Part shown: positions 10,221 through 51,225 of the stretch, piece by piece | Layout of the letters: each line of letters starts with the position of its first letter | Position numbering within the stretch: the stretch's first letter is position 1 | The notes under the pieces: model-generated | What the model saw: the letters and a program-made list of their open reading frames with translations, nothing else | The model's database searches: none | Told to the model about the DNA's origin: nothing | Assembly (NCBI GenBank): GCA_964509765.1 | Contig: CAZDYI010000011.1 | Span: 12,824 to 76,823, forward strand | Reading direction: 5' to 3' | DNA length: 64,000 nucleotides | Source of the DNA: an uncultured Gammaproteobacteria bacterium | GTDB taxonomy: Bacteria; Pseudomonadota; Gammaproteobacteria; Tethybacterales; Tethybacteraceae | Program-made: the position numbers and the translations under genes

Positions 10221-10272
10221 CTGAGCCTGAAGCCGGCGGCGCGGTCGCCTGTGTCAGAATGACCCGGCGGCC

Positions 10273-34807: not shown

Positions 34808-35743
34808 GTGGCAACGCTGCTGCAGCGGACGCTCTCGGGGCCGAGCCCCGAGGTCTGCGGGGTAGGCCTGCACTCGGGCAGCGCGATCCGCATGCGGATC
34901 GTCCCGGCCGGCTGCGGGGAGGGCATCTCGTTCGTCCGCACCGACATAAACGGCGGCGCGAGGATCAGGCTGCGCGCCGGCAACGTCGGCGACACCATGC
35001 TCGCGACCACCATCGAGGAGGGCGGGGCGAAGGTCTCGACGATCGAGCACTTGCTGTTCGCCATGTGCATCTGCGGGGTGGACAACGCGACCGTAGAGAT
35101 AGACGGTCCCGAGGTGCCCATCATGGACGGCAGCGCAAGGCCGTTCGTGCTGGTCCTGCGGGACACTGGATTGGCCGAGCAGGAGCGCCCGAAGCGCTTC
35201 ATCAGGATCAAGAAGAGGGTGGAGGTCGGGCTGGACGGCGAGCCCGGCAGGCATGCCGCCTTCGAGCCCGCGCAGGCCCCGAGCTGGAGCGTGAGCGTCT
35301 CCTACCGCAACCCGGTGATCAGCCGCACCGCGCAGGACTTCGACCACGGGCTCGGCGACCACGCCGCGTCGGTCTCAAGGGTGGCAGGCGCGCGTACCTT
35401 CGGCTTCGTCCGCGACGTCGATCTGCTGCGTTCGAGGCAGCGCGCCTTGGGCGGGACGCTCGACAACGCAGTCGTCATAGACGGCGGCAGGGTGCTCAAC
35501 GCAGGCGGCCTGCGCCAGGACGACGAGTTCGTCGCGCACAAGATGCTCGACGTGATCGGCGACTGCTACACAGAGGGCAAGCTGGTCCTGGGCAGGTACA
35601 GCGCGAGCATGCCCGGGCATGCGCTCAACAACCGCCTGATGCGCGAGCTGCTCGCGGACGAGGAGAGCTGGGAGGATACGGAGGCGGACGCGATGGACGC
35701 GGACAGCCTGCCGGACTTCGGGCCGTTGCGGGCTACGCTCTAG
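34808..35743 (+). CDS. lpxC: UDP-3-O-acyl-GlcNAc deacetylase
   Basis: 'QRTLSGPSPEVCGVGLHSGSAIRMRIVPA' LpxC N-terminus; GTG start with RBS GGGAGAGG upstream. Confidence 0.9.
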   Translation: MATLLQRTLSGPSPEVCGVGLHSGSAIRMRIVPAGCGEGISFVRTDINGGARIRLRAGNVGDTMLATTIEEGGAKVSTIEHLLFAMCICGVDNATVEIDGPEVPIMDGSARPFVLVLRDTGLAEQERPKRFIRIKKRVEVGLDGEPGRHAAFEPAQAPSWSVSVSYRNPVISRTAQDFDHGLGDHAASVSRVAGARTFGFVRDVDLLRSRQRALGGTLDNAVVIDGGRVLNAGGLRQDDEFVAHKMLDVIGDCYTEGKLVLGRYSASMPGHALNNRLMRELLADEESWEDTEADAMDADSLPDFGPLRATL

Positions 35744-36028
35744 AGCATCGGGTTGCGTCAGAGCAACTAGGCGACTGAATCCATCGCAAGAATAATGAAA
35801 CCTTGGCAACACGGGCTAGGTCTACGCTGATATTAAATTACCCGTACCGGATCCAGCGATCTGGTGTGTTGCCAGGGCTAGTTTTCTGTTTGTGGATTGA
35901 CCGTTCCTTGTCAAAGTAGACTTGTGCAGCGAATAAGCTCACACAGCGTAAATTAATGCTGAATCAAGCATTCCTGTTTATCCTCCGCGTCCTGCAGACC
36001 ACTTTATGGTACAATAATCATTGCCGGC

Positions 36029-37534
36029 ATGAACTCCTCAAAGGAAAAAACAGAGCTGGAGGTCAAGGATTTTGGCCCGATTGCAGAGGCTAATCTGGAG
36101 TTGTGCCCGTTGACGATCTTCGTCGGACCAAGCAACTCCGGCAAGACTTATCTTGCCTACCTGATATACGCTCTCCACCAATTTTTTGGCGGAGCGGGGC
36201 TGTATGCCCGCTCTGGAAAGTCGCGGCCCCACACGTTTCGGGTCGACCAGAAGCTAAATCAAAAAGGAATCGAGATGGCCTCGAGCATTCTCCAAGGACT
36301 CGATAAAAAAGGAAAGAACAGCATCGATTCAAGGGTTAAAGTTTCTTTTCCCAAGGAATTCTCCAGATTCATAAAGAAATACCAAACTGAGAGGAAATAT
36401 CAGTTCGGCGACGCCATCCAGGAGTGTTTTGGCCAGAACGGAAGCGAAGAAATGTTGATTCGAAGAGGTCAGGAATCAACAGGCTCTCGGATAGTTCTTA
36501 AACGTCTCTCTGAAGAGAACAAGACGGTGTTCGAGCAACAATTCAAGATACATCATGATGATGTATCAACATCAGTGAAGTTATTGAATGAGATACCATT
36601 AGCAGTTGGCGCTGATGACGCTCATTATTTTCAACAAATTGTCGATCATTATAATTCTCCGGAACAGTTTACATTCGTTAACGTACTTTCGGTTGTCGAC
36701 AATCTCCTCATTCCTTCGTTGGTGAATCCGATGCACATGCCGGCATATTACCTGCCGGCAGACAGGACGGGGATAATGCACTCGCACAGTGCAGTGTCGG
36801 AAACACAAGTCGATCGAGACTACAATGCAGCAAAATCAACGGAGCAGGAAAGAGTCTCGCCATTGTTTTCCGGCGTGCTGTCCGATTTCATCAAGCATTT
36901 GATCAAATTGAATCCAAAGAATATCCGGCTTATCAAGCACAGGAGGGATGCTGCCGATTTAGGAACAAATATCGAAGAAGAAATTCTTGAAGGAACCATA
37001 AAGGTTACAGGTGTCACAGGATACCCGGAATTCAGATACACGCCAGCTGGATGGAAAGGTGAAAACAACAGTCTGTCAATGATGCATGCCTCATCCATGG
37101 TATCTGAGCTTGCTCCAGTGGTTCTGTATCTTCGATACTACGTGTCTCCGAACAACGTTTTGATAGTTGAAGAGCCCGAAGCCCACCTGCACCCGGAAAT
37201 GCAGATTAAGTTGGCGCAGCAACTGGCCGTCTTGGTCTCGAAGGGCGTCAGGGTAATTGTCACCACACATAGTGAATGGTTGATGGAAGCATTTGCGAAT
37301 ATCGTGGAACGATCAAAAACTGGCTCTCGCAATGATGGGTCCGAAGTCAGCCTGAACTCGCGAGATGTCGGAGCGTGGCTGTTCACGACAAAGCGAGGTC
37401 CCAAGCGATCCATAGTTCAGAGAATTAACATTGATGAAACATCTGGTTTGTACCCAACAGATTTTGAGCGTGTAGCGATTACATTGCACAATGAATGGGC
37501 CGACATCACCAGTGAAATAGAATCTAACCGATGA
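36029..37534 (+). CDS. OLD/ABC-type AAA ATPase (AAA_15/21-like), module A
   Basis: Walker A 'VGPSNSGKT'; 'LIVEEPEAHLHPEMQ' (the OLD-family EEPExHLHP motif); 'VTTHSEWL' H-loop; GC ~45%. Confidence 0.75.
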   Translation: MNSSKEKTELEVKDFGPIAEANLELCPLTIFVGPSNSGKTYLAYLIYALHQFFGGAGLYARSGKSRPHTFRVDQKLNQKGIEMASSILQGLDKKGKNSIDSRVKVSFPKEFSRFIKKYQTERKYQFGDAIQECFGQNGSEEMLIRRGQESTGSRIVLKRLSEENKTVFEQQFKIHHDDVSTSVKLLNEIPLAVGADDAHYFQQIVDHYNSPEQFTFVNVLSVVDNLLIPSLVNPMHMPAYYLPADRTGIMHSHSAVSETQVDRDYNAAKSTEQERVSPLFSGVLSDFIKHLIKLNPKNIRLIKHRRDAADLGTNIEEEILEGTIKVTGVTGYPEFRYTPAGWKGENNSLSMMHASSMVSELAPVVLYLRYYVSPNNVLIVEEPEAHLHPEMQIKLAQQLAVLVSKGVRVIVTTHSEWLMEAFANIVERSKTGSRNDGSEVSLNSRDVGAWLFTTKRGPKRSIVQRINIDETSGLYPTDFERVAITLHNEWADITSEIESNR

Positions 37535-38040
37535 CGCAACTCGTCGAGAAAATCGTCTCTGAAGTTCCCTGTGATTGCCTTGTGAAGGGCAAGCTAACCA
37601 AGAGCGGTTGCGACGTTCTGATGAATGAGGTGCCGACGCATAGCGTAGTAATCGATCTCGACAAGCACCCTTGCTTTGAAGGCAACAATCGGACACACTG
37701 TGACTACATTATGGTTGCGACCGACCTGGGAGATTTAAACATAATCGTCCCACTCGAGCTAAAAAAAGGCGATTTGGATCCCAGCGATGCCTTGAAGCAA
37801 TTGCAGGCTGGCGCGGATTTCGCCATGCGATTCATTACTGCCAAGGAGAAAGTAGAATTCCTGCCATATGCAGCGTCAGGAAATACGCGAAAACTAAGGA
37901 AGGAGGGCAAGAAAGTTTCAGACTATAAAATTAAAGTACGTGGCAAACTAATACCTCTACGACGAATCGAGTGCGGTGAAGCCCTTCCGCCAGCAATATA
38001 CCGCGTGCTAACAAAACTAGGATGGAAGATCAAATTCTGA
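37531..38040 (+). CDS. Small partner of ATPase A; putative PD-(D/E)xK-like nuclease with a Cys cluster
   Basis: ATGA overlap with the ATPase; 'HCDYIMVATDLGDLNIIVPLELKKG' gives a D...ExK arrangement; Cys at 14, 16, 26, 49 and 58. Confidence 0.45.
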   Translation: MTQLVEKIVSEVPCDCLVKGKLTKSGCDVLMNEVPTHSVVIDLDKHPCFEGNNRTHCDYIMVATDLGDLNIIVPLELKKGDLDPSDALKQLQAGADFAMRFITAKEKVEFLPYAASGNTRKLRKEGKKVSDYKIKVRGKLIPLRRIECGEALPPAIYRVLTKLGWKIKF

Positions 38041-38650
38041 AACGTGCGGATATTATGAGTCTCCAATCTGAAAAATCAGGCGACATGCAGTTCAGAGAGA
38101 TATTGCACTTGGACATCATCATCTAGTAGTTCAAGCGAATTCGAATCTGAAAAAATTGATGTTGAAGACTATCAGGCAGGCTTATCGGATAGTAGTGACA
38201 GGGACTTCACGATTAGAATCAATAGCTCGAGAAGCCCCAGCCTCTTATACTATGTAAGAGAACCTGTACACGGTCCAAGTTGCGTTGGGGTTGGAGGAGC
38301 CCCTGCCGCCAGGCTCGCTTTTGCAACCGTGCTTATCTGCAAGTCTGATTTCCAATTGCTGGGCTTGCTCCCTTGTGAGGCCGTCCATCAGAACCACCCA
38401 CTCGTAGATTTGCCCTGGGAGTTCTTTTTCCCATTGCTTCTGGCGGGCTTTGAGGTTAGTAGTCATTCCAACTACACAGGGCATAGTCCAACTCCAAGTC
38501 CGTATTGCGGGAAGATGATTCTACCATCAATGATCGCAGCAAATCAAGCTCGCAGCACGTCCACCCTACTTGTCGATTGTCTATTGAAGGTCCGAATGCG
38601 GACTTGTTTAGCCGGCTCATTAGCTTCCAATGACCGAACGCCAACAGACT

Positions 38651-40642
38651 TTAGGAGCCCGATCCATTAGCAAAATTGTCCAAGGCAGAGATCACCTTCT
38701 GAAGCGGCCTCAGCGCCTCCGTGTTTTCTTGAAACTCGGTGTACGCCTTTTCTGCGTTATGCAGCAACTCGCTGTAGGTGATGAACCTGGCATCTGCGGA
38801 ATCCAAGACATTGATCACTGTTTGCTGCCCGTCAGGCATGCTCCATTCCAACGGAGGCTCGCCCAACACGCAAATGATGTCGATTCTCTCGTTGGTTGCC
38901 TTGTTCTCTTCCAACGCCGACTTGATGCTGGCTCGATACCTGTTAACCTGCTTCGCGAGATCATATACAGAGACATTTATTCCAGGACGCTTCAGTTCAA
39001 CTATGACGTGTGTTCCAGTGGCTGTCCTGTACTGGATGTCGATTCTTGACCTGCGTTCCTCATCAGTCAGGTAGTCTGCATCCCCCTCCAAGATGGTGTT
39101 AATGGACCTCTCAAGAGTCTCAGACCCGATCGTCCTTTCCCATGCAGGGTCCAGCAGCCACAAGTGATCGAAGATGTACTCCTGGATCACTCTCTCCAGT
39201 GCCTTGGCCTCCACCTTGTTGCGAATGGTCTTGATGATTTCCAGGCGCTCCTTCACGATCTCGCCGTACAACACGATCTCAAGGCTGTCCATGTCAGCGA
39301 ACACAGCCAGAAGCTCCTCGATGTTTTCACCGCTGACTGCGTCCAGCGCCTCGAGGTTCTTGGAGGTTCGGTAAAACTCGAAGGCAATCGCAGCGTGCTT
39401 GATGAGCTGGTTCTTTTCTTGCTGGCTTGCTATGTTCAGCTGATTGATCTTCCCTATCCAGAGCTTGGCCTTGCCTTGTTGCTCTGAGGGAATGCTGTCA
39501 AGCCATTCATTGATTGCCGGTATCTTCACGGCCTGCTTGATTCCTTCCTTGGTTCTCAGTTCTGACCATTTCCCCTTGATGTGCTTCAGTTCCGTGCCGA
39601 TGAATTTTGACAGCGCGACATAGCGCGGGTCGTCCTCGACCAGACTTTGCCTGCCTGTGGTTGCTGAATCATCGTCCTCGTCGTCCTTGCAAGTCGCCGT
39701 GTCCAAACCGTCGACGCGCAGTTCGCCAACAAGGTAGCTCGCATAGACCCCTCTCTCGGAGAAATCACTAAGCAAGTCCTCCTGCGCCATCTTTCCGCGC
39801 ACGAAGATCGCAATGCGGTTGAGGTTTTCCCCACCCTCGACCTTGAGCTGGCTGCTTTCCTTCGCAGTGCCCAACCAGCCATTAATCGACAGCGAGCGAA
39901 TTTCCCCATCCCCGGCGCCCTCGCTTCTGTCAATGGCGTCTTCGTCCAAATTCCCGCACTGCCGGACTATCTCTGCTTGGTCTCCGTACGTCCAGATGTA
40001 CTGAAGCTTGTCATAGTACCCACGGTCTTCGGGCATGATCTGGCGGTCGTTGACGAACACGCTGAACTTTTCCTTCTCGCCGATTATGGAGAAGCGCCTT
40101 GCGAGCCTTTGCCGCAGCCAGTCGTCGCTTCGGGAGGTGAATTTCTTGCGCAGGTTGGACAGCGTGATCCTGGTGCCGTGCTGGAAGTCAATGCTGTCCG
40201 TCGGCAAGTCATCCGGGTAGTACTCCTTTCCGTTCGACTTGATCTCACTCTCAATCTTTTCCAAGCTGAGGCCCAGCGCTGTCTTGTTGCTGTCTTGCCG
40301 AGTTTCCACGACGATGTCCCTTGCTATGGACAGCAAGGACAGCTTCCCTATGCCCTTGCGTCCCATGGGCGACCTGCCCAGCTTTGTGGGCCCTGCCTGC
40401 TTCACCCTCCTTTGGTACCCGACAAGGAGGAAGCGGTCGATCACTTCGTCCCTTGTCATGCCGGTGCCATCGTCAGTGATGACGATCACGTCGCCGTTGA
40501 CGCTGATGCGCACGTTGTTTGCATCGGCGTCCCACGAGTTGGCGACGATCTCGGAGAGAACGGCCGGCACGTTGCTGTACAGGTTCAGCCCGAGATGCTT
40601 CAGGACATCCAGGCTCAGCTTCATAACCAGTTGCCTGCTCAT
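38651..40642 (-). CDS. MORC-like GHKL (HATPase_c) ATPase with a C-terminal PD-(D/E)xK-like domain; candidate ATP-dependent restriction component
   Basis: GHKL N-box 'EIVANSWDA', G1 'ITDDGTGMT', G2 'GRKGIGKLS'; C-terminal 'RIDIQYRTATGTHVIVELKRPG' gives a D...ExK arrangement. Confidence 0.7.
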   Translation of the reverse strand: MSRQLVMKLSLDVLKHLGLNLYSNVPAVLSEIVANSWDADANNVRISVNGDVIVITDDGTGMTRDEVIDRFLLVGYQRRVKQAGPTKLGRSPMGRKGIGKLSLLSIARDIVVETRQDSNKTALGLSLEKIESEIKSNGKEYYPDDLPTDSIDFQHGTRITLSNLRKKFTSRSDDWLRQRLARRFSIIGEKEKFSVFVNDRQIMPEDRGYYDKLQYIWTYGDQAEIVRQCGNLDEDAIDRSEGAGDGEIRSLSINGWLGTAKESSQLKVEGGENLNRIAIFVRGKMAQEDLLSDFSERGVYASYLVGELRVDGLDTATCKDDEDDDSATTGRQSLVEDDPRYVALSKFIGTELKHIKGKWSELRTKEGIKQAVKIPAINEWLDSIPSEQQGKAKLWIGKINQLNIASQQEKNQLIKHAAIAFEFYRTSKNLEALDAVSGENIEELLAVFADMDSLEIVLYGEIVKERLEIIKTIRNKVEAKALERVIQEYIFDHLWLLDPAWERTIGSETLERSINTILEGDADYLTDEERRSRIDIQYRTATGTHVIVELKRPGINVSVYDLAKQVNRYRASIKSALEENKATNERIDIICVLGEPPLEWSMPDGQQTVINVLDSADARFITYSELLHNAEKAYTEFQENTEALRPLQKVISALDNFANGSGS

Positions 40643-40743
40643 AATTTGGAAGTAAAGCGCTCTGCTCAGTTGCCAATCGCATAATTTACCATGACATCCG
40701 CCGAAATCCCGCCATCAGCATGGATATGGCCCGGTTCATGGGT

Positions 40744-41799
40744 TCAGCCCGATCCCGCCACGTGCCTGACTATGCTTCTTCCGATCGCAGCCCCGAGCAT
40801 GACGGGAACCGCATTGCCAACTATCCGGCTGATATCGAACTGGTTGACCTTCTCGCCAGGACGGACGAACTTGTACCGCTTGGGGAAGGTCTGCAGGATG
40901 GCCCCTTCCCGAAGCGATATCGCCCGGTCCTGATCGGGGTGTCCGAACCGTCCGTTGCCAAAACCACGATAGTTTGTGGTTATTGTCGGTGAAGGCTTGT
41001 CCCAGGACATGCGGTCATACACGTTCAGGTAGTTCTTGCCCACGCCACGAGTGTGGCAATCGGCGCGGATGGCCGGATCCCAGTCCTTCCAGGTGCCACC
41101 CGGAACGGATTGCCTGATGCGCTCCATGTTCCTTTCCGACAGGCCGCTGGAGCGGTGCACAGGGTCGGAAGCGTCAGCTTGCCCTGCATCCAGCTGGGGC
41201 ATGCCATGAATCGCCGACCTGACCGTCCTGCGCCTGCCAGCAGGGGTGGTCGGGCCGACCAGGGAGATCTCCCCCAGCCTCGAGGCCAGCAGGACCAGCC
41301 TGTTCCGGTGCTGGGGGACTCCGTAGTCGACGCAGTTCACGAGCTTGTGGAACACGCTGTAACCCTGCCTTTCCAGGCTTCGCACAAAGCCCTTGAACAC
41401 CTCCTTGTTCCTGAGCGGAGGGACGTTCTCCATGGACACCAGCTCGGGGCGGGTCTGCTCGACCAAGCGGCCGAAGTGGGACAGCAGATTCCAGTTGCCG
41501 TGGGACGGGCCCACCTCGCGGCGGTTGTAGGCGGAGAAGGGCTGGCACGGGGCGCAGCCGGCCAACAGCCTCAGCTTCGAGCTGTCAAAATACGACGACA
41601 GCAAGCTTGATGTCGTGTCCTCCACCGACTGCAAAAGGAACTTGGCCTTGTTGTTGGCCGAGTAGGGATAGGCGCAGGCAGGGTCGGCGTCGATCCCCAG
41701 CCTCATGTCGATCCCGGCCTGCTCGAGACCGCGGGTAAGGCCTCCTGCGCCGCAGAACAGGTCAATGCCGCGGATTGACTTTGCGGTTGAGTCATTCAT
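40744..41799 (-). CDS. DNA (cytosine-5)-methyltransferase
   Basis: Motif I 'DLFCGAGG', motif IV 'GCAPCQPFS', motif VI 'ENVPPL', motif X 'GNAVP'; start assigned to MNDSTAKS (ATG on the complement of 41797-41799) because the longer ORF extension lacks motifs. Confidence 0.85.
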   Translation of the reverse strand: MNDSTAKSIRGIDLFCGAGGLTRGLEQAGIDMRLGIDADPACAYPYSANNKAKFLLQSVEDTTSSLLSSYFDSSKLRLLAGCAPCQPFSAYNRREVGPSHGNWNLLSHFGRLVEQTRPELVSMENVPPLRNKEVFKGFVRSLERQGYSVFHKLVNCVDYGVPQHRNRLVLLASRLGEISLVGPTTPAGRRRTVRSAIHGMPQLDAGQADASDPVHRSSGLSERNMERIRQSVPGGTWKDWDPAIRADCHTRGVGKNYLNVYDRMSWDKPSPTITTNYRGFGNGRFGHPDQDRAISLREGAILQTFPKRYKFVRPGEKVNQFDISRIVGNAVPVMLGAAIGRSIVRHVAGSG

Positions 41800-42037
41800 T
41801 TGTCTTGAATGCTGACTTATATATTCTATTTGCCTGCTGGTTACAACTGCCGCAATAATTGCTTGCATTGTTGATAGCATAATGAAGTCCATGAGACACT
41901 GGCTAACATAATAGAGATGGTTGGAAGAGGTCTGAATCGTGGTCGATGAGAGCAAGGCAGAGGAGATCCTGCAAACGTTAGCGGAGTTCCAGCATTGCGG
42001 CAGCGGCGAGTCAATTCTGTTGTAAAATCTTCCATCA

Positions 42038-43389
42038 TGATGCGGGGCATTGACAGCATCAGAGTTCAGAAGTTCCGTTGCTTCAAGGATGAGCAACAGG
42101 CAACGATCCGCCCGATCACCATCCTGCTCGGTGAAAACAGCTCGGGCAAGACATCGTTTCTGCGGAGTTGCCAAGCCCTCAATCAAGTCCTGTCGGGCAG
42201 GGCGGTCAACTTCAATGAGCCCCCGCTTGACATGGGCTAGTTCTAGGACATCCGCAACGGACGGGGCGGCCAATTCAACATTGGTTATGACATTGTTCGG
42301 GCAAACAAAGTATGCAAAGTAACTCTTGCAATTGAGAGCAGCCCGTCCACTGGCTGCAGGCTGTTCTCAGTCTGGTTGAAAATTGACAACTCGACGCTAT
42401 TCAGCATAGACATCGCTGAAGAGGACATTATATTCGTCACTGTTCATAAAGTCGCTCAAATTGAGCTAATGCGAATCAAGGATTACGAAGGTCCGATCGA
42501 GCTGTCTTCAAGGCTGATATTTTCCTTGCTGGTAATTTCCTTGGAACAGAAAACCAGCGAGATCAGATTGTCGGAAAGACTAATAGAGATGGGTGCCGGC
42601 TTGAGTCGTAAGGAAATTCTGCAATTACATGAAGGTCTTTCTTCCGCTGGTAAGATGGATCTGATAGATGACTTCTTCGGCGAGCTACAACTCATGCCTA
42701 GCGCTAGGTACTCAAAATATAAAAAAGCCATGCAGAGAATTGCGGATGATTGTTGCGTAATTTCAAGCAGACACGGCCAGATCAGCGCATATGCTCCTTT
42801 CAGGACCAAACCCAATAGGATGTATGGCCAGATGTCTGGCGGCACCACGCCTGAGGGAGACCATGTCCCTAATATAATGAAGGATCTATCACTCAACGAT
42901 CCGCAGGAATGGGAGAGGATGCGCAGATTCTTGTTGCGTTATGGCTAGGATACCGGACTGTATTCCGGCATCTCCATCAAGGACATCAACGGAGAGTATG
43001 GGCTGTTCCAGCTGCAGGCCAAAGTCGGGAAATCTGCCAGAAACATCGTAGATGTCGGTTATGGAATCAGCCAAGTGTTGCCCGTTCTAGTTGAATTGCA
43101 TCAGCGCAGACGGGATGCATGCACATTCTTGTTGCAGCAGCCTGAGGTGCACATGCATCCAAGGGCGCAAGCGTCATTGACGTCTTTGATGACCCAAGCA
43201 GTCAATGAAACGAATTCGACGTTTATTGTGGAAACTCACAGTGACAGCATCATGGACAGGTTGCAGATCCTAGTGCGAAAGGGAACATTAGCTCCGGAAA
43301 AAATATCCATTCTGTTCTTCGACCCAAAAACCAGCGGCAACGTAAAGATACACAATATGAAGCTCGGAACGCGAGGAAACTTGCTTTGA
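42038..43389 (+). pseudogene. ATPase paralog of 46923-48353 kept in one reading frame but interrupted by three in-frame TAG codons (42238, 42244, 42946)
   Basis: Contiguous frame-0 translation aligns end-to-end with the intact paralog: 'IRPITILLGENSSGKTSFL', 'FNIGYD', 'SPEGDHVPNIM', 'VDVGYGISQVLPVL', 'LLQQPEVHMHP', 'VETHSDSIM'. Stops fall at paralog positions T, S and K. Confidence 0.6.
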
Positions 43390-43451
43390 GCTCCGAGACA
43401 ATACAGGGAATTCAAACTGAGGGAAATCAACACGAAATTGGGATTTGAATG

Positions 43452-43886
43452 ATGTGCATAATCATCGACGCCTCAACCATCGGCAAGTTCAACGACCCCG
43501 AAGACGAGGACGCCTCTCCGATCCGCTAATGGATTGAGAAGGGAAAGGGCTCCGTGGCTTTCGCTCCTTTCAAGGAGCTCGGGGACACGGCGATTGCCAA
43601 GATAAACGAGTACGACCTGACCGGCAAGCTGATTCTCTACAGCCTTGAGGAAGTTCGCTCGGAGCAACGCATACTCAAGAGGGAAGGTCACGAACTGAGA
43701 TCGAATGATCCCCACATGCTGGCTTTGGCCAGGATCAGCGGGGCCAGGCTTCTGTTTACCGCTGACAATAAACTGATGGATGATTTCAGGGAAAAGAGAA
43801 TTCTTGGCGGACGAAAGAGAGGGAAGATATATTCGAGCAAAGGCAACACTGACCTGTTGACTAACCGGGCATGCGCCAAGAAGTAG
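43452..43886 (+). pseudogene. PIN-like (DUF4411-like) paralog of 46498-46923, interrupted by an in-frame TAA at 43527
   Basis: 'MCIIIDAST...' then stop, then '...LRSNDPHMLALARISGARLLFTADNKLMDDF'; the intact copy reads 'MCIILDTNIF...LRSNDAHILALAKLSGARILYSRDRKLHQDF'. Confidence 0.55.
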
Positions 43887-43980
43887 GCATCTATCCGAAT
43901 TTCTTCTCCGAAGCTGACACCTGCATAGTGGGTTTATCTGGAAGACTGGATACGCCATTGACTTTAGCAGGCACCTCTTG

Positions 43981-45531
43981 TTAATTATTCGACGGAGTTC
44001 CTTGGTCAGCTAGGCTCTCCATTGCTTCGATCTCCCAAGAAATCAGGCTTCCCTCATTGTGAATCGCATTTGCCACATCATCAAATCCAGTCTGGTACAT
44101 TCCGGAATCGTCCATGGTGATTTCCTTGACTACTGAGCCCAAGGGTTTTTTCCTATGCTCAAACATCCATGCACCGACTTGATCATGGCGCAGAGAAACT
44201 CCCACGGCATCAACGTAGCGCGTTTTCTTGACTGTTGTGATCAGCGAGCGCCGCACGATGTTTGCCAATGCCTCTAGGAGAAACTCGCTGTGAGTGGTGA
44301 GAACGATCCTAATGCCTGAGTTGACAATAGCGGCAAGTTGCTCGATGAGCTCAACCTGCTGTTCAGGATGCAGGTGCGACTCCGGCTCTTCCAATATCAG
44401 GATGTCGCCCGGCATGACCTTGTTTCGCAGGAACAGCACCAGCGGCGCAAGCTCGGCCACCGCGGCCGAAGCTTGGATCAAGGGGAGGGCGGCCTTCCTT
44501 CCGTTCCACTTACTGGGCCTGAAGAAAAACTCGGGAAAGCCCACTGGCGACAGCTCGACCTCAATGTCTCCGTTAAGGATCCTGTCCTCAATTGCCTTGG
44601 CATGGCTCTCGCATCCGCCTCCGGGCAGGCTTTTCCCCGGCCTGTTGTCTTGCATGCTGATGATCCGGTCAATGAAGCCCGACACCACTCCTGTAAGGTA
44701 AGAGGAGCCGCTTGTTGCGCTGAGCCTTCCCATCGGAGCGCTTGCGAGAAGAGAGCTCAAGACCAACTTGTGGGTGCGCATCAGCCCGGTTCGGTCGGGG
44801 GGAAGGTAGTATGAGGAACTGTCCAGGGGACCCGCCAGCCGGCGGAGCATCAGGCGATGCAGCATGTCCAGGCAGTGACGGACGTTCACCCCCAGGTTCT
44901 CGCAGTTGCGGCCCAAGTCGTAGTCAAGGAGGCGCTGCGCATCGTCCTTACCAAGGGGCAGCGGAACCTTGCCGGGCATGGAGACCCTGACCGTCGCGTC
45001 GGACGGCGTGAAGCGCACCTCGTGCCCGAAGACAGCCTTGGTTCCGTCGAGCCTGTGCTCGAAGGAAACCCGGGCGGCCCTGCTTCCCCTGCGAACCAGC
45101 GAGTTGTCCCCCAGATCGGAGCCGTAGCAGTGCCTGAGCAGCTGCCGGAACGCGTCGCCCCTGGCCTCCAGGCGCTCGCCCAAGGTCCTCGTGATGCCGG
45201 CAGGAACGGTCACTTGCAGTTCGGATGTGTCCCCGTACAGCTGCCCGAATAGCTGCCGGAGGATCCTGTCGAGCGAGCTTGCCGCGAGACCGATCCCTGA
45301 GCGCAGGCCGCTGTCAGGCTGCTCGTCCGGCTCCCAGGGCAGGGAAGGCCCGAACAGGTGCGAGTTGCCCGCGTCGAAGAACCTGTGCAGTGCATAGACC
45401 AGGGTCGCCAGGTACGACTTGCCGGCGTTGCCGGAGCCGACAAGGATCGTCAGCGGGCGCAGGTCGAGCCTGGCCTCGACGATGGGGCCGAAGTTCTCCA
45501 CTTCAATATTGAGGGCGCCTTTTCCGCTCAT
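43981..45531 (-). CDS. OLD/ABC-type AAA ATPase, module B (paralog of module A)
   Basis: 'ALNIEVENFGPIVEARLDLRPLTILVGSGNAGKSYLA' and 'LILEEPESHLHPEQQ...VLTTHSEFLLEA'; start set at MSGKG to match the paralog's N-terminus. Confidence 0.75.
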   Translation of the reverse strand: MSGKGALNIEVENFGPIVEARLDLRPLTILVGSGNAGKSYLATLVYALHRFFDAGNSHLFGPSLPWEPDEQPDSGLRSGIGLAASSLDRILRQLFGQLYGDTSELQVTVPAGITRTLGERLEARGDAFRQLLRHCYGSDLGDNSLVRRGSRAARVSFEHRLDGTKAVFGHEVRFTPSDATVRVSMPGKVPLPLGKDDAQRLLDYDLGRNCENLGVNVRHCLDMLHRLMLRRLAGPLDSSSYYLPPDRTGLMRTHKLVLSSLLASAPMGRLSATSGSSYLTGVVSGFIDRIISMQDNRPGKSLPGGGCESHAKAIEDRILNGDIEVELSPVGFPEFFFRPSKWNGRKAALPLIQASAAVAELAPLVLFLRNKVMPGDILILEEPESHLHPEQQVELIEQLAAIVNSGIRIVLTTHSEFLLEALANIVRRSLITTVKKTRYVDAVGVSLRHDQVGAWMFEHRKKPLGSVVKEITMDDSGMYQTGFDDVANAIHNEGSLISWEIEAMESLADQGTPSNN

Positions 45532-45538
45532 GCCCGCG

Positions 45539-46024
45539 TCATTTCGCGAGGAAGCTGCTGAAAACATCATCGAAAGACATGCGCGCTGGCGCGCGTCTCT
45601 CGATGCACCCACCGTCAAGGATTTCCCTTTCGCGGGCGAGCTCGCGCTGGCTCTGCATCTCGTTGTGGTGATCCCTGATTGACTCACAGATGTTGATGTA
45701 GAACCTGACAAGCAAGAGACAGGCAACAAGCGTGACTGTCCCGCCGAAGCCCAGCATCGCTGCTGCCAGCCAAGCAGGCGCGGGAGTGACTATCGCGGCT
45801 GCCATCAGCTGCGTGCAGGCAAACACCAAGGCTGATGCCTTGAGGACGTTCATCCTTGCCCTTTTTGCAGGGGCGTCCATCAGCTCCCTGTCTGCGCCGG
45901 GGATGCCCTCAAGGGCATCGAACACATTGATCATCCCGAGGCAGGCTCCGCCCAACAAGATGATCATGTACAGGCAGGTGATCTCGATAATCGCGACCGA
46001 AAGGATAACTTGAACGGCTGTCAT
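45539..46024 (-). CDS. Small integral membrane protein (3-4 TM) immediately upstream of ATPase B; candidate effector/partner
   Basis: Hydrophobic segments 'VILSVAIIEITCLYMIILLGGACLGMI', 'ALVFACTQLMAAAIV', 'AAAMLGFGGTVTLVACLLLV'; stop lies 5 nt before the ATPase start. Confidence 0.5.
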   Translation of the reverse strand: MTAVQVILSVAIIEITCLYMIILLGGACLGMINVFDALEGIPGADRELMDAPAKRARMNVLKASALVFACTQLMAAAIVTPAPAWLAAAMLGFGGTVTLVACLLLVRFYINICESIRDHHNEMQSQRELAREREILDGGCIERRAPARMSFDDVFSSFLAK

Positions 46025-46497
46025 GGTCTTTCTGCCCTAGCGCAAGCGGACTTGCGGTCCAGGATGCGCAGGGATGCCGCATGTTATCACCAATCGAGCC
46101 GGAACCGTCGATCGGCCTCCGGAGCGAAAGGCAACCAGGCAGCCTGCGCAGTCCGGCGCACTGGGTTCAGGCTGCGCTGATTCAGGGAGCGCCGGCATCG
46201 GCACGGCCGACGTGCTAGTCCTTGGAGCCGGTCCGCCGGGTCGGATTACTCGGGAAGAAACCCCTTGGAGTTCCCGGCCGGAGCAGGGGTGTCCTGCTCC
46301 TCTGGGCACCTGAGGAGGTATTCCTCAAGCTGAGGTTACCAGCCATCCGCGATGTCGAAACAACAGCCCTTGCAGACCATCAAGCCACAGCCCCCGTCAT
46401 ACCGATCCCATGCGAAAGAGCAGGAGCAGATAAAATGCGCAGTCAAGCAATGGCAGAAAATTCACTCAATGCGAATGAACCTATGTGCCATGGCAAA

Positions 46498-46923
46498 CTA
46501 CTTCCTGCATGGATTCTTGAACAGCAACTTCCTCTGGTCCCATTTGGTGTATACCATGCCCCCGTCGATGATCGCCGGGTTCTTGAAATCCTGGTGGAGC
46601 TTCCTGTCCCTGGAATACAAGATCCGCGCGCCGCTCAGCTTGGCGAGCGCCAGTATGTGGGCGTCGTTGGACCTCAGGCGCAAGTCCGGGTTGCCAAGCA
46701 GCCTCCGGGTCTCCTTGCAGACCTCTGCAGGTGGAATCGTGATGAGAAGATCAACCCTGCTGTAGCCGAGAAACACCTCGAGAGGATAATTACTCCATTC
46801 CTCGATGGGAGAGTACACCACCCTCCCCTTTTCCTTCCTCAGCCATTCATGCACAACAGATGCGGTGCGGTTGGAAGTGTCCCGCATGTCCGCGAAGATG
46901 TTCGTGTCAAGTATGATGCACAT
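46498..46923 (-). CDS. PIN-like nuclease (DUF4411-like), partner of ATPase C
   Basis: 'MCIILDTNIF' PIN N-terminal motif and '...SNDAHILALA' conserved Asp; ATGA overlap with the upstream ATPase. Confidence 0.65.
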   Translation of the reverse strand: MCIILDTNIFADMRDTSNRTASVVHEWLRKEKGRVVYSPIEEWSNYPLEVFLGYSRVDLLITIPPAEVCKETRRLLGNPDLRLRSNDAHILALAKLSGARILYSRDRKLHQDFKNPAIIDGGMVYTKWDQRKLLFKNPCRK

Positions 46924-48353
46924 CAGTCGAACCCAAGGAGACGGTGGGTTTCAGCCAGGAAAAACTCCCTGTAGCTTGAAGGGGTCCCTTGCAAATTGCC
47001 TTGGGAATCCAGACTGATGTTGTAGATGTTCACGCCCCTGTTAGCATCCGGGGAGAAAAACAGGAACGACACATCCTTTGGATCAATTTTCTTCTTCCGC
47101 ACATCTATGCGAACCCTGTCAACGAAAAACTCACTGTGGGTTTCAACCAGAAACGAAGAGTTGTCTTTCTTGTACGACTCTAGCAATTGGGATGCAAGCG
47201 CCACCTGGCTCTTCGGATGCAGGTGTATCTCAGGTTGCTGGAGCAGGTACGTGTGTTCCTCAGAAGGATTGTGAAATATCTCGAACAGGATCGGCAGCGC
47301 TTGGCTGACACCATAACCTACGTCAATGAGATTGGTTTTTTTCGCGTTCCTGACCCCCACTTGGATCTTGAAAGGATCGGAGCCCGCACCGTATTTCTTG
47401 ATGTCAATCCCGGTGAACAACCCGGATTCCTTGCCGTAATTCGTCAACGACTCATTCAATTCCTCCCACCTTTCCGGGTCTGTCAGTTTCAGGTTCAACA
47501 GTTCCATGGGAGTGTAATCTCCCTCAGGGGAATTCTTTCCAGGCATGGGGTCATACGATCTTTTTGGTTCGGATCTAATTGGCGCAATTGCCTTAACATA
47601 ATCCTTTCCGTAACTTTTTGGAAATAGGCCTGCACCTATCCACAGCGGAAAAAACACAGACTTGGACTTGTGTAATTCGGACAGTGCCTTGTTGAACACC
47701 TTGTCGATCCTCTTCCACAGCGATTTTATTGTCATGCGCTCGTAAAGCGACCGCAACTCTTCATAATTGAACACATCGTTCAGCAACAAATATTCTATGG
47801 ATCGATTTTTTGCAGCATCCTTACGCTTAGCTTGTTTCCTTGATCTAGTTGAAACCAACAGCAATGACTGAAACAAATGATCCACTGTTTGGGCCAATGG
47901 ATAGTATCCAGCCGTTTTCGCAGTGACATGAACCTTCTCTTTGGTTGGCAAAGTGACCAGCACCTTGTCACTTGTTGTTTTAGAGAAAGTGAAGCACAGA
48001 TCATTGTCAATCACCACGCTAATTTCAGAAACCTCGATTTCTGTTTGTTGCGCTGTGAAGCTGAACTTTGCTTCCCTGGCAAAGCCGTCCCGCGTTTCCG
48101 AGTATCCGATGTTGAACACCGGGCCGCGGTTTTTGTAGACTATGTCGGAGAAGGTGCCCAGCTGCAGCGGAGGCAGGTTGAAGTCGATCTTTCCGCCGGA
48201 CAGGACTTGATTCAGCGCGCGATAGGCACCCAGGAACGAGGTCTTCCCCGTGCTGTTCTCTCCCAAGAGGATCGTAATCGGGCGGATTCTCGCTCGTTGC
48301 TCCTCTCCGAAGCAACGATAATTGTCCATCAGCAGATTGTCTATTCGCAACAT
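46923..48353 (-). CDS. OLD/ABC-type AAA ATPase, module C
   Basis: Walker A 'LLGENSTGKTSFL'; 'LLQQPEIHLHPKSQ'; 'VETHSEFF'. Confidence 0.75.
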   Translation of the reverse strand: MLRIDNLLMDNYRCFGEEQRARIRPITILLGENSTGKTSFLGAYRALNQVLSGGKIDFNLPPLQLGTFSDIVYKNRGPVFNIGYSETRDGFAREAKFSFTAQQTEIEVSEISVVIDNDLCFTFSKTTSDKVLVTLPTKEKVHVTAKTAGYYPLAQTVDHLFQSLLLVSTRSRKQAKRKDAAKNRSIEYLLLNDVFNYEELRSLYERMTIKSLWKRIDKVFNKALSELHKSKSVFFPLWIGAGLFPKSYGKDYVKAIAPIRSEPKRSYDPMPGKNSPEGDYTPMELLNLKLTDPERWEELNESLTNYGKESGLFTGIDIKKYGAGSDPFKIQVGVRNAKKTNLIDVGYGVSQALPILFEIFHNPSEEHTYLLQQPEIHLHPKSQVALASQLLESYKKDNSSFLVETHSEFFVDRVRIDVRKKKIDPKDVSFLFFSPDANRGVNIYNISLDSQGNLQGTPSSYREFFLAETHRLLGFD

Positions 48354-48449
48354 GAGACCATTATACTACGAAATTGCCCAACGGGCTCTCTCGTGCTTGT
48401 CCATGCAGGAAACCTGAAGTCCGACTTTGCTAGGGGACATTGCTCGGGA

Positions 48450-49739
48450 TCAGCCCTGCCGCGCGGTCTCCCTGAAGGCATCCGCCGCCGCGCCGACCGT
48501 GGCCTTGATAACCCCCTCGTCGTGCCCGAGTCCGACGAAGCAGGCCTCGTAGCGTGAAGGGGGCAGGAGCACGCCTCGCTTGAGCATCCCGTGGAAGAAC
48601 CTCCTGAACGCGCCCTCGTCGCAGGCCTCGACCTCGGGCAGGGTCCCTGGGACCCCAGGGGCGAAGTACAGCCCCGCCATGGCCCCGACGGCCTGCGCGC
48701 GGAAGGGAACCCCGGCATCCCTGGCCGCGGCCTCCAGGCCCTCGCAGAGGGCCTTGCAGGCGGCGAACAGGGTTTCATATGCATCGTCGTCGAGCAGCTC
48801 GAGGGTGGCCAGGCCCGCGGCGAGCGCGACCGGGTTGCCCGCGAGCGTTCCCGCCTGGAAGACGTCGCCGGTGGGTGACAGCCGCTCCATGAGCTCGCGC
48901 CGGCCGCAGACGGCCGCGGCGGGCAGGCCGCCGCCGATGACCTTGCCGAGGCAGACCAGGTCGGGCTCGGTCCCGAACAGGTCGCGGCAGGCCAGGCCCG
49001 GGGTCGCCCTGAAGCCGGTCATCACCTCGTCGGCTATCATCAGCGCCCCGCAGGAGTCGCAGCCCTCGCGGATCGCGCCGATGAAGCCCGGGTCGGGCAC
49101 AACCAGGTTCATGTTCCCCGCGATGGGCTCGACGATCACCGCCGCGAGCTCCTTGCCGCGCTCTTGAACGAGCTCCGCGACGCCGTCGGCTCCGTTGTAG
49201 GCCAGGACCGCAGTGTCCGCGGCCGCGCCGGCCGGCACGCCCGCGGAGGACGGCTTGCCGAGGGTCATCGAGCCGGACCCCGCCTCGACGAGCATCGCGT
49301 CCGTGTGGCCGTGGTAGCCCCCTGCGAACTTGGCGACGAGGCTGCGCCCGGTTGTCCCGCGCGCGAGCCTGACCGCGGTCATCGCGGCCTCGGTGCCCGA
49401 GCTGACCGCCCGGAGCATTTCGGTTCCGGCCCTCCTGCACACCTCCGCTGCGTACCGCTCCTCGGCATCCGTGGACATCCCGAAGCCGAGGCCGCCGCGC
49501 GCGGCCCTTTCGACGGCCTCGAGGACCGCGGGATGGGCGTGGCCGGCGATCACCGACCCCCAGCCCATCACGAAGTCGATGAGCTCGCTCCCGTCCGCGC
49601 GGAAAAGCCGCGCGCCCCTGCCGCCCGTCACGACGACCGTCCCGCTGTCGCCGCCGACCCCGCGCAGCGACCGCACCGGCGAGTTGACCCCGCCGGGCAT
49701 GAGCGCGTCCCGCGTTGCGGGACCGGATGGGGCTGTCAA
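48450..49739 (-). CDS. hemL: Glutamate-1-semialdehyde 2,1-aminomutase
   Basis: Class-III aminotransferase, 429 aa, with 'GGVNSPVR' and 'KFAGGYHGH' motifs. Confidence 0.9.
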   Translation of the reverse strand: MTAPSGPATRDALMPGGVNSPVRSLRGVGGDSGTVVVTGGRGARLFRADGSELIDFVMGWGSVIAGHAHPAVLEAVERAARGGLGFGMSTDAEERYAAEVCRRAGTEMLRAVSSGTEAAMTAVRLARGTTGRSLVAKFAGGYHGHTDAMLVEAGSGSMTLGKPSSAGVPAGAAADTAVLAYNGADGVAELVQERGKELAAVIVEPIAGNMNLVVPDPGFIGAIREGCDSCGALMIADEVMTGFRATPGLACRDLFGTEPDLVCLGKVIGGGLPAAAVCGRRELMERLSPTGDVFQAGTLAGNPVALAAGLATLELLDDDAYETLFAACKALCEGLEAAARDAGVPFRAQAVGAMAGLYFAPGVPGTLPEVEACDEGAFRRFFHGMLKRGVLLPPSRYEACFVGLGHDEGVIKATVGAAADAFRETARQG

Positions 49740-49764: not shown

Positions 49765-51225
49765 TCAGAACTCGGGCCGCGGGAAGAGCGCCAGGCCCGA
49801 GTACAGGCCGTCGAAGGTCTCCGGAAGCGGGAACACGCCCGCGTCCCGCATCCTCTGGCCGAGCTCGCGGCGCGTGAGCCAGCCGACCAGGTCGTCGAAG
49901 TCGAACACCCTGCGGTTGATCGTTACGTTCTTGAGCGGGGCGGGCTTGGGCTCCCACTCGTGGATGGGCACCCGGGTCGTCGCGAAGACGTAGTTGTACG
50001 GGCGGTCCAGGCCGCGTATGATGTCGAAGGCCCTGGTCGAGTGGTTGCTTATCCTGGTCGGGTCCTCGTTCTGGACGATCTCGTCGTACGGGTAGCACGA
50101 GCCGAACAGGGCGTTGACCTCCTCGATGTCGATCGTGCTGTAAGTGAACGGCGGCATGGTCGGGGACGGGTAGCCCACGCACGTCCTGTTGGTTCCCTCG
50201 TAGGTCGCGGCGCCGAAGCGGTTGGGACCGTGCGAGATGATCACGAACGGGATCCCGTCGGTGACGTCGCGGACGTTGGGGTTGAGCAGGAAGTCCGCCA
50301 CGTACCTCGAGTAGTCGTCCGAATACTGGTCGAATGGGTTCTCGTTCGAGTGCAGGGTGGAGTTGTCGATGTTGTCCGTCGGCCGGCAGACGGTCGGGTC
50401 GGTGCCAGGGCCGGGGACGAGGTCCTCGGGCCTGCACACGACCATCGGCGCGGCCCCGAGCCTGCGGTCGCCGCGCTGGGCGAACGACCTGAGCTCGGAC
50501 AGGTGGGCCACAGCAGCGGTCTCGTAGAACGGGATGAAGGCCCCGGCCCTCGTGGCCTGGTCGAAGCCGTAGGCCGCGGTGGAGAACACCGGGTGCACGA
50601 CGTAGGTGAGCGCGGCGCCCCAGCTGTCGGTCGGCGGGAGCCCGAGCGTCGCCCACGGCAGGTCGCCGCGGACCTGCTCGCACACGCCGAAGGCGTGCTT
50701 GCCGGCGTTGTTCGCGGCCGAGCCATCGTCGAAGTCCTCGGCGAGGGGCGCGCGATCGCGGCCGATGCCGCCGTCTCCCCGCAGGGCAAACCTGTTGTCG
50801 GACCCTCCGCGCAGGCCGTCGGGCGCCGGGACCATCGGCACGTAGACCGCCGAGCGGTCCTCGATGCCGTCTCCGTTGACGTCCGGGCAGGGCAGGTACG
50901 GCCGGCCCTCGGGGACCCGGGCGATCCGGTGGCCATAATGTTCATACAGGTCTCGTGTCCCGGTGTTGCCGTTAAGGTTCAAGTAAAGGACGTTCATCCC
51001 GGGGCTGCGCCGCGAGGCGGCGTAGCCGACGACGGCGTCGATCGCGTCGGTTATGCGCTGTGACGTCCTGTCGTAGGCCTTGTCCTCGAGCTGCCTTCCG
51101 ATCGGGAGCACCGCGCCGCTCAGCAAAAGGCCGAGCACGGCGAGGACGATAGCAAGCTCGACGAGCGAGTACCCCTGCCTGCGCCCGCGCCGCGCCGCGG
51201 CCTGCGTCCCGGCCCTAGCAGGCAT
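49765..51225 (-). CDS. Large prepilin-type (class III signal) pseudopilin-like protein P3, 486 aa
   Basis: 17-aa basic leader then 'G|YSLVELAIVLAVLGLLL' (Glu at +5); shared motifs 'YLPCPDVNGDGIEDR', 'GVCEQVRGDLPW', 'SWGAALTYVVHPVF', 'ISHGPNRFG'. Confidence 0.7.
   Translation of the reverse strand: MPARAGTQAAARRGRRQGYSLVELAIVLAVLGLLLSGAVLPIGRQLEDKAYDRTSQRITDAIDAVVGYAASRRSPGMNVLYLNLNGNTGTRDLYEHYGHRIARVPEGRPYLPCPDVNGDGIEDRSAVYVPMVPAPDGLRGGSDNRFALRGDGGIGRDRAPLAEDFDDGSAANNAGKHAFGVCEQVRGDLPWATLGLPPTDSWGAALTYVVHPVFSTAAYGFDQATRAGAFIPFYETAAVAHLSELRSFAQRGDRRLGAAPMVVCRPEDLVPGPGTDPTVCRPTDNIDNSTLHSNENPFDQYSDDYSRYVADFLLNPNVRDVTDGIPFVIISHGPNRFGAATYEGTNRTCVGYPSPTMPPFTYSTIDIEEVNALFGSCYPYDEIVQNEDPTRISNHSTRAFDIIRGLDRPYNYVFATTRVPIHEWEPKPAPLKNVTINRRVFDFDDLVGWLTRRELGQRMRDAGVFPLPETFDGLYSGLALFPRPEF

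Follow-up and report, generated by a model that had tools for sequence, protein, structure and literature searches.

The DNA analysed here (the window) is a 64,000-nt stretch of contig CAZDYI010000011.1 from an uncultured gammaproteobacterium of the Tethybacteraceae (assembly GCA_964509765.1), and the subject of this work is the island at positions 35744-48449, which lies between the core genes lpxC, the last gene of the dcw cluster (ftsA-ftsZ-lpxC), and hemL, coding for glutamate-1-semialdehyde aminomutase (Table 1). The GC content of the island is 0.41-0.67, against ~0.70 in its surroundings. In segments, it amounts to 0.69 at 35250-35749, 0.41-0.50 over 35750-38250, 0.44-0.67 over what remains of the island, and 0.73 again from position 48500 onwards, in agreement with the trough between lpxC and hemL described in an earlier note made from the sequence alone. 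That note distinguished three two-gene modules, each pairing an ATPase with a small partner, and the six open reading frames (ORFs) it named (A1, A2, B1, B2, C1, and C2) are all found at the positions it gave. The count of three is nevertheless too low, as the island consists of five units, namely module A, a restriction-modification (R-M) pair, a dead module D, module B, and module C, of which the R-M pair and module D had been overlooked. We consider it highly probable that the region is a horizontally assembled and fast-remodelled anti-phage island at a fixed hotspot between lpxC and hemL, composed of the five units described below.

Table 1. Genes and other features of the island, its two core flanks, and a gene pair elsewhere in the window.
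Feature	Position	Strand	Basis
A1, OLD-type ABC ATPase, 501 aa	36029..37534	+	Pfam AAA_15 1.8e-23, AAA_21 1.6e-13
A2, Cys-rich PD-(D/E)xK nuclease-like protein, 169 aa	37531..38040	+	motif, model, HMMs
orf79, conserved small gene, 79 aa	38245..38484	-	conservation in L167
Type II restriction endonuclease, BbrUII/HgiDII family, GHKL ATPase N-terminus	38651..40642	-	NCBIfam NF050001
C5 cytosine DNA methyltransferase	40744..41799 (start uncertain; ORF open to 42273)	-	PF00145 1.1e-48
D1, pseudogene of C1-type (NsnB-like) ABC ATPase	42037..43452	+	36% identity to C1
D2, pseudogene of C2-type PIN protein	43452..43886	+	34% identity to C2
B1, A-clade OLD-type ABC ATPase, 516 aa	43981..45531	-	PADLOC PD-T4-4_A 7.5e-32
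B2, 161 aa, three predicted transmembrane helices, charged C-terminal tail	45539..46024	-	hydropathy
Non-coding spacer, C2 to B2	46025..46497	-	~355 bp (roughly 46143-46497) lost with C2 in related strains; ~120 bp beside B2 kept
C2, PIN-domain protein, 141 aa	46498..46923	-	Pfam PIN 3.2e-07
C1, NsnB-like ABC ATPase, 476 aa	46923..48353	-	PADLOC NsnB 3.1e-40
lpxC, left core flank	34808..35743	+	Pfam LpxC on called gene
hemL, right core flank	48450..49739	-	Aminotran_3 on L007 orthologue
HTH + Peptidase_M78 protein, RmrA-like	596-1879	+	PADLOC 8.7e-20
PDC-S70-like protein, 177 aa, overlapping RmrA-like gene	1860-2393	+	6.4e-12

The same lpxC-hemL site carries an island with other gene content on contigs of related strains (L167, L007, and L005). 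In the core flanks, LpxC is 96% identical at the amino acid level to that of L167, with a ratio of nonsynonymous to synonymous substitution rates (dN/dS) of 0.07, and HemL is 88% identical to its L007 orthologue. L167 and L007 combined reconstruct the island of a relative, which reads lpxC, A1′-A2′, orf79, a truncated PDC-S70-like ORF, a split RmrA-like helix-turn-helix (HTH)/M78 peptidase, B1′, B2′, C1′ without a PIN gene, an ATPase (ATPase505) with a 169-aa nuclease, a further ATPase (ATPase508) with a 163-aa nuclease, and hemL. The R-M pair and module D are absent from this island. It has two extra A-type ATPase-nuclease pairs, and it also contains a degraded Rosmer-like pair. In L005 the order is hemL, C1′, B2′, B1′, and an RmrA-like gene. 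A three-way DNA alignment shows that the PIN gene is cleanly deleted in L005 and L007 together with ~355 bp downstream of it: ATGTG..TCAT of C2 remains, and the sequence rejoins ~120 bp upstream of B2. In L167, no gene lies between C1′ and B2′. In the strains that lack the PIN gene, C1 is still under purifying selection, with a dN/dS of 0.28. The site is a stable hotspot whose cargo is variable and not core. The proposal of a horizontally acquired, variable island is thus upheld, also against the alternative that related strains would show a conserved core region, since the content differs there (no R-M pair, module D, or PIN gene, and two additional pairs).

The remark that neither integrase nor tRNA marks the island is likewise confirmed, as no integrase domain was found by the Pfam scan and no tRNA in the window. 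Rfam gave no RNA match in the window, no att-like direct repeats were found bounding the island, and promoter and terminator scans remained at chance level. On a contig from SRR23238410 (L170, 1-1965), the 3′ end of hemL is present at both ends (1-115 and 1880-1965), and a gene for a 310-aa protein and an overlapping one for a B2-like membrane protein of 141 aa lie in between. Two explanations offer themselves for this arrangement: a cassette enclosed by two copies of the hemL 3′ end, which would hint at site-specific insertion into the end of hemL, or an assembly loop.

In module A, the genes of A1 and A2 overlap by ATGA. A1 matches the PADLOC profiles PD-T4-4_A (6.4e-35) and PDC-M47A (3.2e-29), its closest solved structure is that of the OLD nuclease 6p74, with the match limited to the Walker B/H-loop region, and its dN/dS relative to a related strain is 0.18. 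For A2, just 31 homologues are detectable among 5.8 billion proteins. The alignment of the family displays invariant D42, D44, C57-D58, E76-L-K78, and QLQAG along with four conserved cysteines, a D...ExK signature of the restriction fold. The structure model is confident and its fold neighbours are restriction-fold proteins. On account of the D...ExK conservation and of this model with its neighbours, A2 is assigned as a nuclease-like protein, and its description in the earlier note as Cys-rich and PD-(D/E)xK-like stands. By analogy with related systems, A1 would be the sensor or regulator of the module and A2 the effector.

The pairing of A1 and A2 recurs well beyond the window. In a scan for ATPases of the clade that comprises A1 and B1 (the A/B clade), with each species represented by a single genome, 79 loci were recovered. 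An A2-family gene lies directly downstream in ~50 of them, typically with an overlap of 1 or 4 nt, and ~7 have no A2-family gene inside 600 bp; the A2 partner is kept in ~90% of 80 loci, across many phyla. The hosts of the pair are almost all metagenome-assembled genomes (MAGs), of bacteria and archaea both. Many of them belong to taxa recognised as associates of marine sponges (Poribacteria, Caldilineaceae, Dehalococcoidia, Rhodothermales, Cenarchaeum/Nitrosopumilaceae, and Tectimicrobiota), and the taxon names suggest that the A-type pair has spread inside this one habitat.

Module C combines the ATPase C1 with the PIN-domain protein C2, whose genes overlap by one base (TGATG) and not by ATGA, the overlap that the earlier note had assigned to this module as well as to A1/A2, where it is indeed found. 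In addition to NsnB, C1 matches the PADLOC profiles PDC-M55A (2.8e-35) and HEC-03B (2.4e-27, residues 290-461). All three ATPases of the intact modules carry AAA_15/AAA_21 domains (Pfam E 1e-12 to 2e-23); the EEPExHLHP signature at Walker B, attributed to all three in the earlier note, is present in A1 and B1, while C1 has QQPEIHLHP. A1 and B1 are full-length paralogues (36.5% identity) with different partners, just as had been proposed. The alignment of C1 with A1 and B1, on the other hand, is confined to the surroundings of Walker B and the H-loop, and C1 belongs to a different ATPase clade. Since C1 falls into a separate clade, the notion of three effectors on one sensor is not supported.

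The PIN assignment of C2 in the earlier note is corroborated by the Pfam match and by an alignment of 30 family sequences, in which D5, S84, D86, H88, D105, and D111 are invariant. Judging by the invariant D5, D86, D105, and D111, the PIN domain looks catalytically competent, and C2 is a putative RNase effector with C1 as the putative sensor or regulator of the module. Searching metagenomes with a profile of C1 and D1 yielded 80 loci, of which the 65 with a near-full-length ATPase were considered for the partner count. A C2-family PIN gene follows the ATPase at -8 to +7 nt in 52 of these, and in the remaining 13 the contig mostly ends before the partner position. The C/D-type ATPase family numbers at least 720 proteins at E<=1e-10, and C2-type PIN pairs are found in JGI metagenome contigs. 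One relative of the C/D-type ATPases comes from Candidatus Spongiihabitans.

Module D is a dead paralogue of module C. It is collinear with C and has the same TGATG junction between D1 and D2, and D1 aligns with C1 over 476 aa in a single frame. Five in-frame stops interrupt it, four in D1 (TAG 42238, TAG 42244, TAG 42946, and TGA 43387) and one in D2 (TAA 43527), while no frameshift was found in its ~1.85 kb and the ATPase and PIN motifs are otherwise intact. The closest intact homologue of D1 (P0039) is just 60% identical. An assembly error is an unlikely cause of the stops, as the gene calls are broken over the same region in sister contigs from two other runs. Deamination of methyl-cytosine was also considered as their source, but simple C-to-T changes probably do not account for them: where D1 has its four stops, homologues carry G/A, R/S, K, and G, which points to transversions or multiple steps.

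The comparison with known systems places modules A and C as new members or sequence variants of described classes of ABC ATPase-effector pairs. PD-T4-4 is a validated defence of E. coli (Vassallo 2022; PMC9519451). WonAB, from the WASA-1 prophage of V. cholerae, couples an OLD-type ABC ATPase to a small PD-(D/E)xK nuclease and acts by abortive infection; it depends on both genes and on the catalytic residues of their products, and docking of the nuclease is predicted to occur at the C-terminal extensions of the dimerised ATPase (PMC12137116). The 'OLD-ABC ATPase + novel REase' family of Krishnan et al. 2020 is taken here as it is cited in the WonAB paper (PMC12137116). Module A resembles PDC-M47, PD-T4-4, and WonAB in its two-gene operon, where the gene of an OLD-type ABC ATPase overlaps a downstream one for a small PD-(D/E)xK protein that has a D...ExK core, and the hallmarks of the WonAB class, i.e., ABC ATPase motifs and a small PD-(D/E)xK partner with the conserved catalytic Lys, are present in it. 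It is also the only module of the island in which an ATPase of the PDC-M47 A type adjoins a partner of the B type, the latter matched weakly.

The differences from PD-T4-4 concern both proteins. A1 and B1 match PD-T4-4_A each in two partial stretches, whereas a genuine member, gp05 of Vibrio phage 1.202.O, does so over its full length (6.4e-185, 1-469; of the order of 6e-185). The A2 family measures 150-170 aa and has four conserved Cys, as opposed to ~209 aa for gp04 of the same phage, the one PD-T4-4_B protein examined, and the A2-type subfamily has been recovered almost only from MAGs. In a profile comparison with gp04 (hhalign), the A2 family profile nevertheless aligns across the catalytic core with 80.7% probability and an E of 1.3e-5. 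Module A would thus represent a new subfamily member of the PDC-M47/PD-T4-4/WonAB class. By analogy with WonAB, the small PD-(D/E)xK nuclease would sit on the C-terminal extensions of the OLD-type ABC ATPase dimer until the dimer, on infection, releases or activates it, resulting in abortive infection. As a separate observation, gp05-gp04 of the P2-like Vibrio phage 1.202.O (NC_048066.1; L171, 2498-4529) make up a complete PD-T4-4 system (A 6.4e-185, B 6.5e-18). The two genes lie between those of the repressor and the integrase, as described for WonAB in the WASA-1 prophage, and are annotated in NC_048066.1 merely as 'AAA family ATPase' and 'hypothetical protein'.

Module C shares with HEC-03 the two-gene unit of an ABC ATPase and a PIN protein. 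In HEC-03 the PIN protein is VapC-like, and both genes are needed for defence (Payne et al. 2024, bioRxiv 10.1101/2024.01.29.577857). C1, however, matches HEC-03B in part only, NsnB and PDC-M55A being better, and module C does not fall within HEC-03 by its HMMs, with a partial ATPase match and the PIN profile unmatched. For Menshen, the prediction is that the C-terminal helices of NsnB hold between them the inactive PIN-like N-domain of NsnC, which is fused to a separate toxin domain (PMC12065111). The likeness of module C to Menshen lies in the NsnB-like C1; it differs in that the island has no NsnA (ParB/DUF262) and in that C2 is a stand-alone PIN protein keeping the acidic catalytic residues. 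Membership of Menshen (NsnABC) was rejected, as the NsnB-like match is the only one and the island holds no DUF262 gene. The module thus has the architecture of HEC-03 in a separate and common sequence family that is widespread in metagenomes. In such a module, the NsnB-like ABC ATPase would control a stand-alone PIN RNase, similarly to an NsnB-NsnC core without NsnA.

Both placements have their partner proteins against them. A2 and 22 relatives give no match to any PD-T4-4_B hidden Markov model (HMM) at E<=0.01; A2 reaches PDC-M47B at just 5.6e-4, 13 of 23 family members matching this profile, with 5.6e-6 at best; and C2 and 29 of its 30 relatives fail to match the HEC-03A HMM, the remaining one matching weakly (0.0054). 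A literature search for PDC-M47 and PDC-M55 returned nothing. With Septu, PARIS, Gabija, and OLD, the island shares the OLD-type ABC ATPase gating a nuclease and weak HMM matches at Walker A and Walker B/H-loop; it differs in having no HNH protein (PtuB), DUF4435/Toprim (AriB), fused Toprim (GajA/OLD), or GajB helicase. Membership of Septu, PARIS, and Gabija was rejected, the defining partner domains being absent from the island in the Pfam and PADLOC searches and the ATPase matches being at motif level. The statement of the earlier note that no module unambiguously matches a named system therefore needs qualification: A belongs with the PDC-M47/PD-T4-4/WonAB class and C has the architecture of HEC-03, and B is indeed unplaced. 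The PADLOC profiles place the ATPases of A and C and the R-M pair, and return B1 as a PD-T4-4_A match without the expected partner.

This leaves module B, which together with the C-terminal shuffling among paralogous ATPases, resolved here at the level of strains, makes up the new elements of the island. The gene of the membrane protein B2 ends 7 nt upstream of B1; the three-helix protein upstream of the ATPase had been recognised correctly, with a gap of 5 nt that has to be revised. The same 7-nt gap is found in L005, L006, L007, and L167 (in the latter, B2 ends at 13118 and B1 starts at 13110). The hydrophobic segments of B2 span approximately residues 3-35, 60-85, and 84-110 by hydropathy. 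Downstream of B1, neither an A2-type gene nor a remnant of one could be detected in the window, L005, or L167, and B2 does not match PD-T4-4_B. The ORFs of B1 and B2 are intact in the window and open in three lineages (the window, L005, and L167). Both proteins change fast: at dS values of 0.17-0.4, dN/dS is 0.52-0.73 for B2 and 0.74-0.77 for the N-terminal part of B1 relative to L167, with lpxC (0.07), A1 (0.18), and C1 (0.26) as yardsticks. For the N-terminal part of B1, with its ~175 substitutions, we estimate that neutrality would have produced several stop codons. Decay is disfavoured, because the ORFs are intact in spite of such ratios at such distances, and the fast change is read as diversifying selection, i.e., an arms-race pattern.

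The comparison of the ATPases between strains reveals a mosaic structure. Residues 1-390 of B1 are 96% identical to L005 B1 (dS 0.03), while residues 391-516 are only 56% identical (dS 1.2) and share 70% identity with the C-terminus of the nuclease-paired ATPase505 of L007. B1 of the window is thus a chimera, of B1 type over residues 1-390 and of the type of a nuclease-paired paralogue over 391-516. A1 follows a similar trend relative to L167, with 79% identity in the N-terminal part and 62-64% in the C-terminal part, and its partner A2 is just 34% identical to that of L167. In the A/B clade, the C-terminal ~110 residues of the ATPase co-vary with the partner, and the unit of exchange consists of these residues, with or without the partner gene. 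In C1 the variable part is instead the middle (residues 150-250, 52-56% identity), and the C-terminus is 86-98% identical to that of L005. The models of WonAB and Menshen put the effector-docking surface in the C-terminal region of the ATPase (PMC12137116, PMC12065111), and by this analogy the exchanged part may be the effector-docking domain. Diversity at the site arises by gain and loss of whole modules and also by recombination between paralogous ATPases, in which the C-terminal part of ~110 residues is exchanged either jointly with the partner gene or on its own. The idea of effector swapping on a conserved ATPase sensor is consequently retained for the mosaic ATPases of the A/B clade and dropped for the ATPase of module C, which belongs to another clade.

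In module B, an A-clade ATPase that has lost its nuclease would be translationally linked to the orphan protein B2. Our preferred reading, that B2 is a membrane-damaging effector replacing the nuclease of B1, appears to us quite possible, though short of probable, the functional link between the two being our reading of their arrangement. The more specific proposal, that an OLD-type ATPase of the PD-T4-4/WonAB clade gates a holin-like effector with three transmembrane helices, its C-terminal ~110 residues serving as a plug-in adaptor, is more tentative and somewhat unlikely. Several observations weigh against a functional B2-B1 pair. The B2 family is tiny, with 2 homologues among 5.8e9 proteins in a word-indexed search and 3 in an exhaustive HMM scan of 1.84e9 representatives, and the AF2 model of B2, all-helical, is of low confidence (pLDDT 60). 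The contigs that carry B all come from closely related strains, so that the conserved synteny has little weight. Other such observations are at the same time what would be expected if module B were no system at all, B1 being an orphaned A-clade ATPase that decays or uses A2 in trans and B2 an unrelated upstream neighbour, which we regard as the main rival and as possible, if rather doubtful. Thus, an A2-family gene accompanies ~90% of the relatives of B1, and a transmembrane partner accompanies none of them; homologues of B2 exist without the ATPase, the one in L170 being preceded by the overlapping 310-aa protein with no ATPase after it, and a distant one in L169 having no ATPase nearby; B2 is split by a frameshift in L007; dN/dS is high in both B1 and B2; and the C-terminus of B1 in the window, so similar to that of the nuclease-paired paralogue, makes a nuclease in trans conceivable. 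On the other side stand the intact B1 and B2 of the window, L005, and L167, in the face of substitutions sufficient for several neutral stops, and the conserved 7-nt gap. The supply of a nuclease in trans is in addition countered by the identity of A2 between paralogous modules, which is just 27-34% and suggests that partners are specific.

A composite operon C1-(C2)-B2-B1, in which two ABC ATPases surround the membrane protein and the PIN protein is optional, was also considered and seems improbable. The four genes are all co-oriented, C1 is directly upstream of B2 in every contig with B, and the PIN gene is cleanly gone from L005, L007, and L167, yet C1 remains constrained between the strains without it, as described above. 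However, the C1-type ATPases pair with PIN alone in the 52 of 65 unrelated loci and those of the A/B type with A2 alone, this synteny is seen in contigs of close relatives, and the divergence histories differ, with dS of 0.5-0.6 for C1 and 0.03-0.4 for B2-B1. Even less probable, in our view, is that the ATPase-effector pairs are chiefly addiction modules of the toxin-antitoxin (TA) kind that stabilise the island, and not phage defences. PIN and PD-(D/E)xK toxins restrained by a partner are formally similar to TA systems, the Pfam name of AAA_21 is 'putative AbiEii toxin, type IV TA system', and the same genomes contain a Rosmer-like TA pair. The relatives that have been tested (WonAB, PD-T4-4, and HEC-03), on the contrary, protect against phages and need both genes to do so, and the modules are easily lost, as seen from the PIN deletion and the pseudogenes of D, unlike strong addiction. 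We therefore retain the reading of an anti-phage island in which A and C are ATPase-effector defences and the status of B is the more tentative part.

The pairing of an ABC ATPase with an effector, as in Septu, PARIS, Gabija, Menshen, WonAB, and the HEC systems, ranks with the most common architectures of defence, and to our knowledge the way in which ATPase sensors become re-coupled to new effectors is poorly understood. The locus offers a natural, strain-resolved series on this process, with a single hotspot where modules have been gained, lost, pseudogenised, and stripped of their effector, and which includes ATPases whose C-terminal part was exchanged at a sharp breakpoint and one ATPase beside an orphan membrane protein. 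Two sizeable families are defined as well, the A2-type nuclease pair, from MAGs of many phyla, and the C2-type PIN pair, from JGI metagenome contigs. As most of the content fits described classes, the value is incremental and not conceptual, unless module B is functional. In that case, this class of ATPase would have its first membrane effector in B2, and one sensor would have been rewired to nuclease, PIN, or membrane effectors through recombination of paralogues inside a single island.

The remaining unit of the island is the R-M pair, in which the endonuclease gene lies downstream of the methylase gene. The endonuclease matches the NF050001 equivalog with 3e-222 and 739.8 bits (cut-off 550), and also PADLOC REase_II (2.2e-90) and Pfam HATPase_c_3. 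For the methylase, the PF00145 match starts at residue 168 of the long ORF, the protein being called with 351 or 403 aa on sister contigs; it further matches PADLOC MTase_II (2.3e-82) and TIGR00675 above the cut-off. Because the equivalog match exceeds the curated cut-off and a C5 methylase adjoins, the pair is assigned to the BbrUII/HgiDII systems, with the methylase as the cognate 5-methylcytosine partner. The endonuclease matches over its full length and nothing notable differs from these systems, so the unit is an ordinary type II R-M pair. No avoidance of GTCGAC, the expected site, is observed in the window (54 occurrences versus 60 expected).

The small gene orf79, also overlooked in the earlier note, adjoins module A in both the window and L167. 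Its product is 87% identical between the two, with a dN/dS of 0.15 indicating purifying selection. Pfam, PADLOC, and NCBIfam contain no family that it matches, and to the eye its sequence (VGMTTNLKARQ) shows a faint likeness to small GIY-YIG proteins.

Outside the island, a Rosmer-like TA/defence pair is located at 596-2393 on the forward strand, ~33 kb away, and consists of the RmrA-like and PDC-S70-like genes of Table 1. A split and truncated copy of this pair, 77% identical, is found inside the L167 island (9845-11301) and also beside B1 in L005. The next gene past hemL, spotted in the ORF list at 49765-51225 on the reverse strand, codes for a protein of 486 aa whose N-terminus resembles that of type IV prepilins (GYSLVELAIVLAVLGLL).

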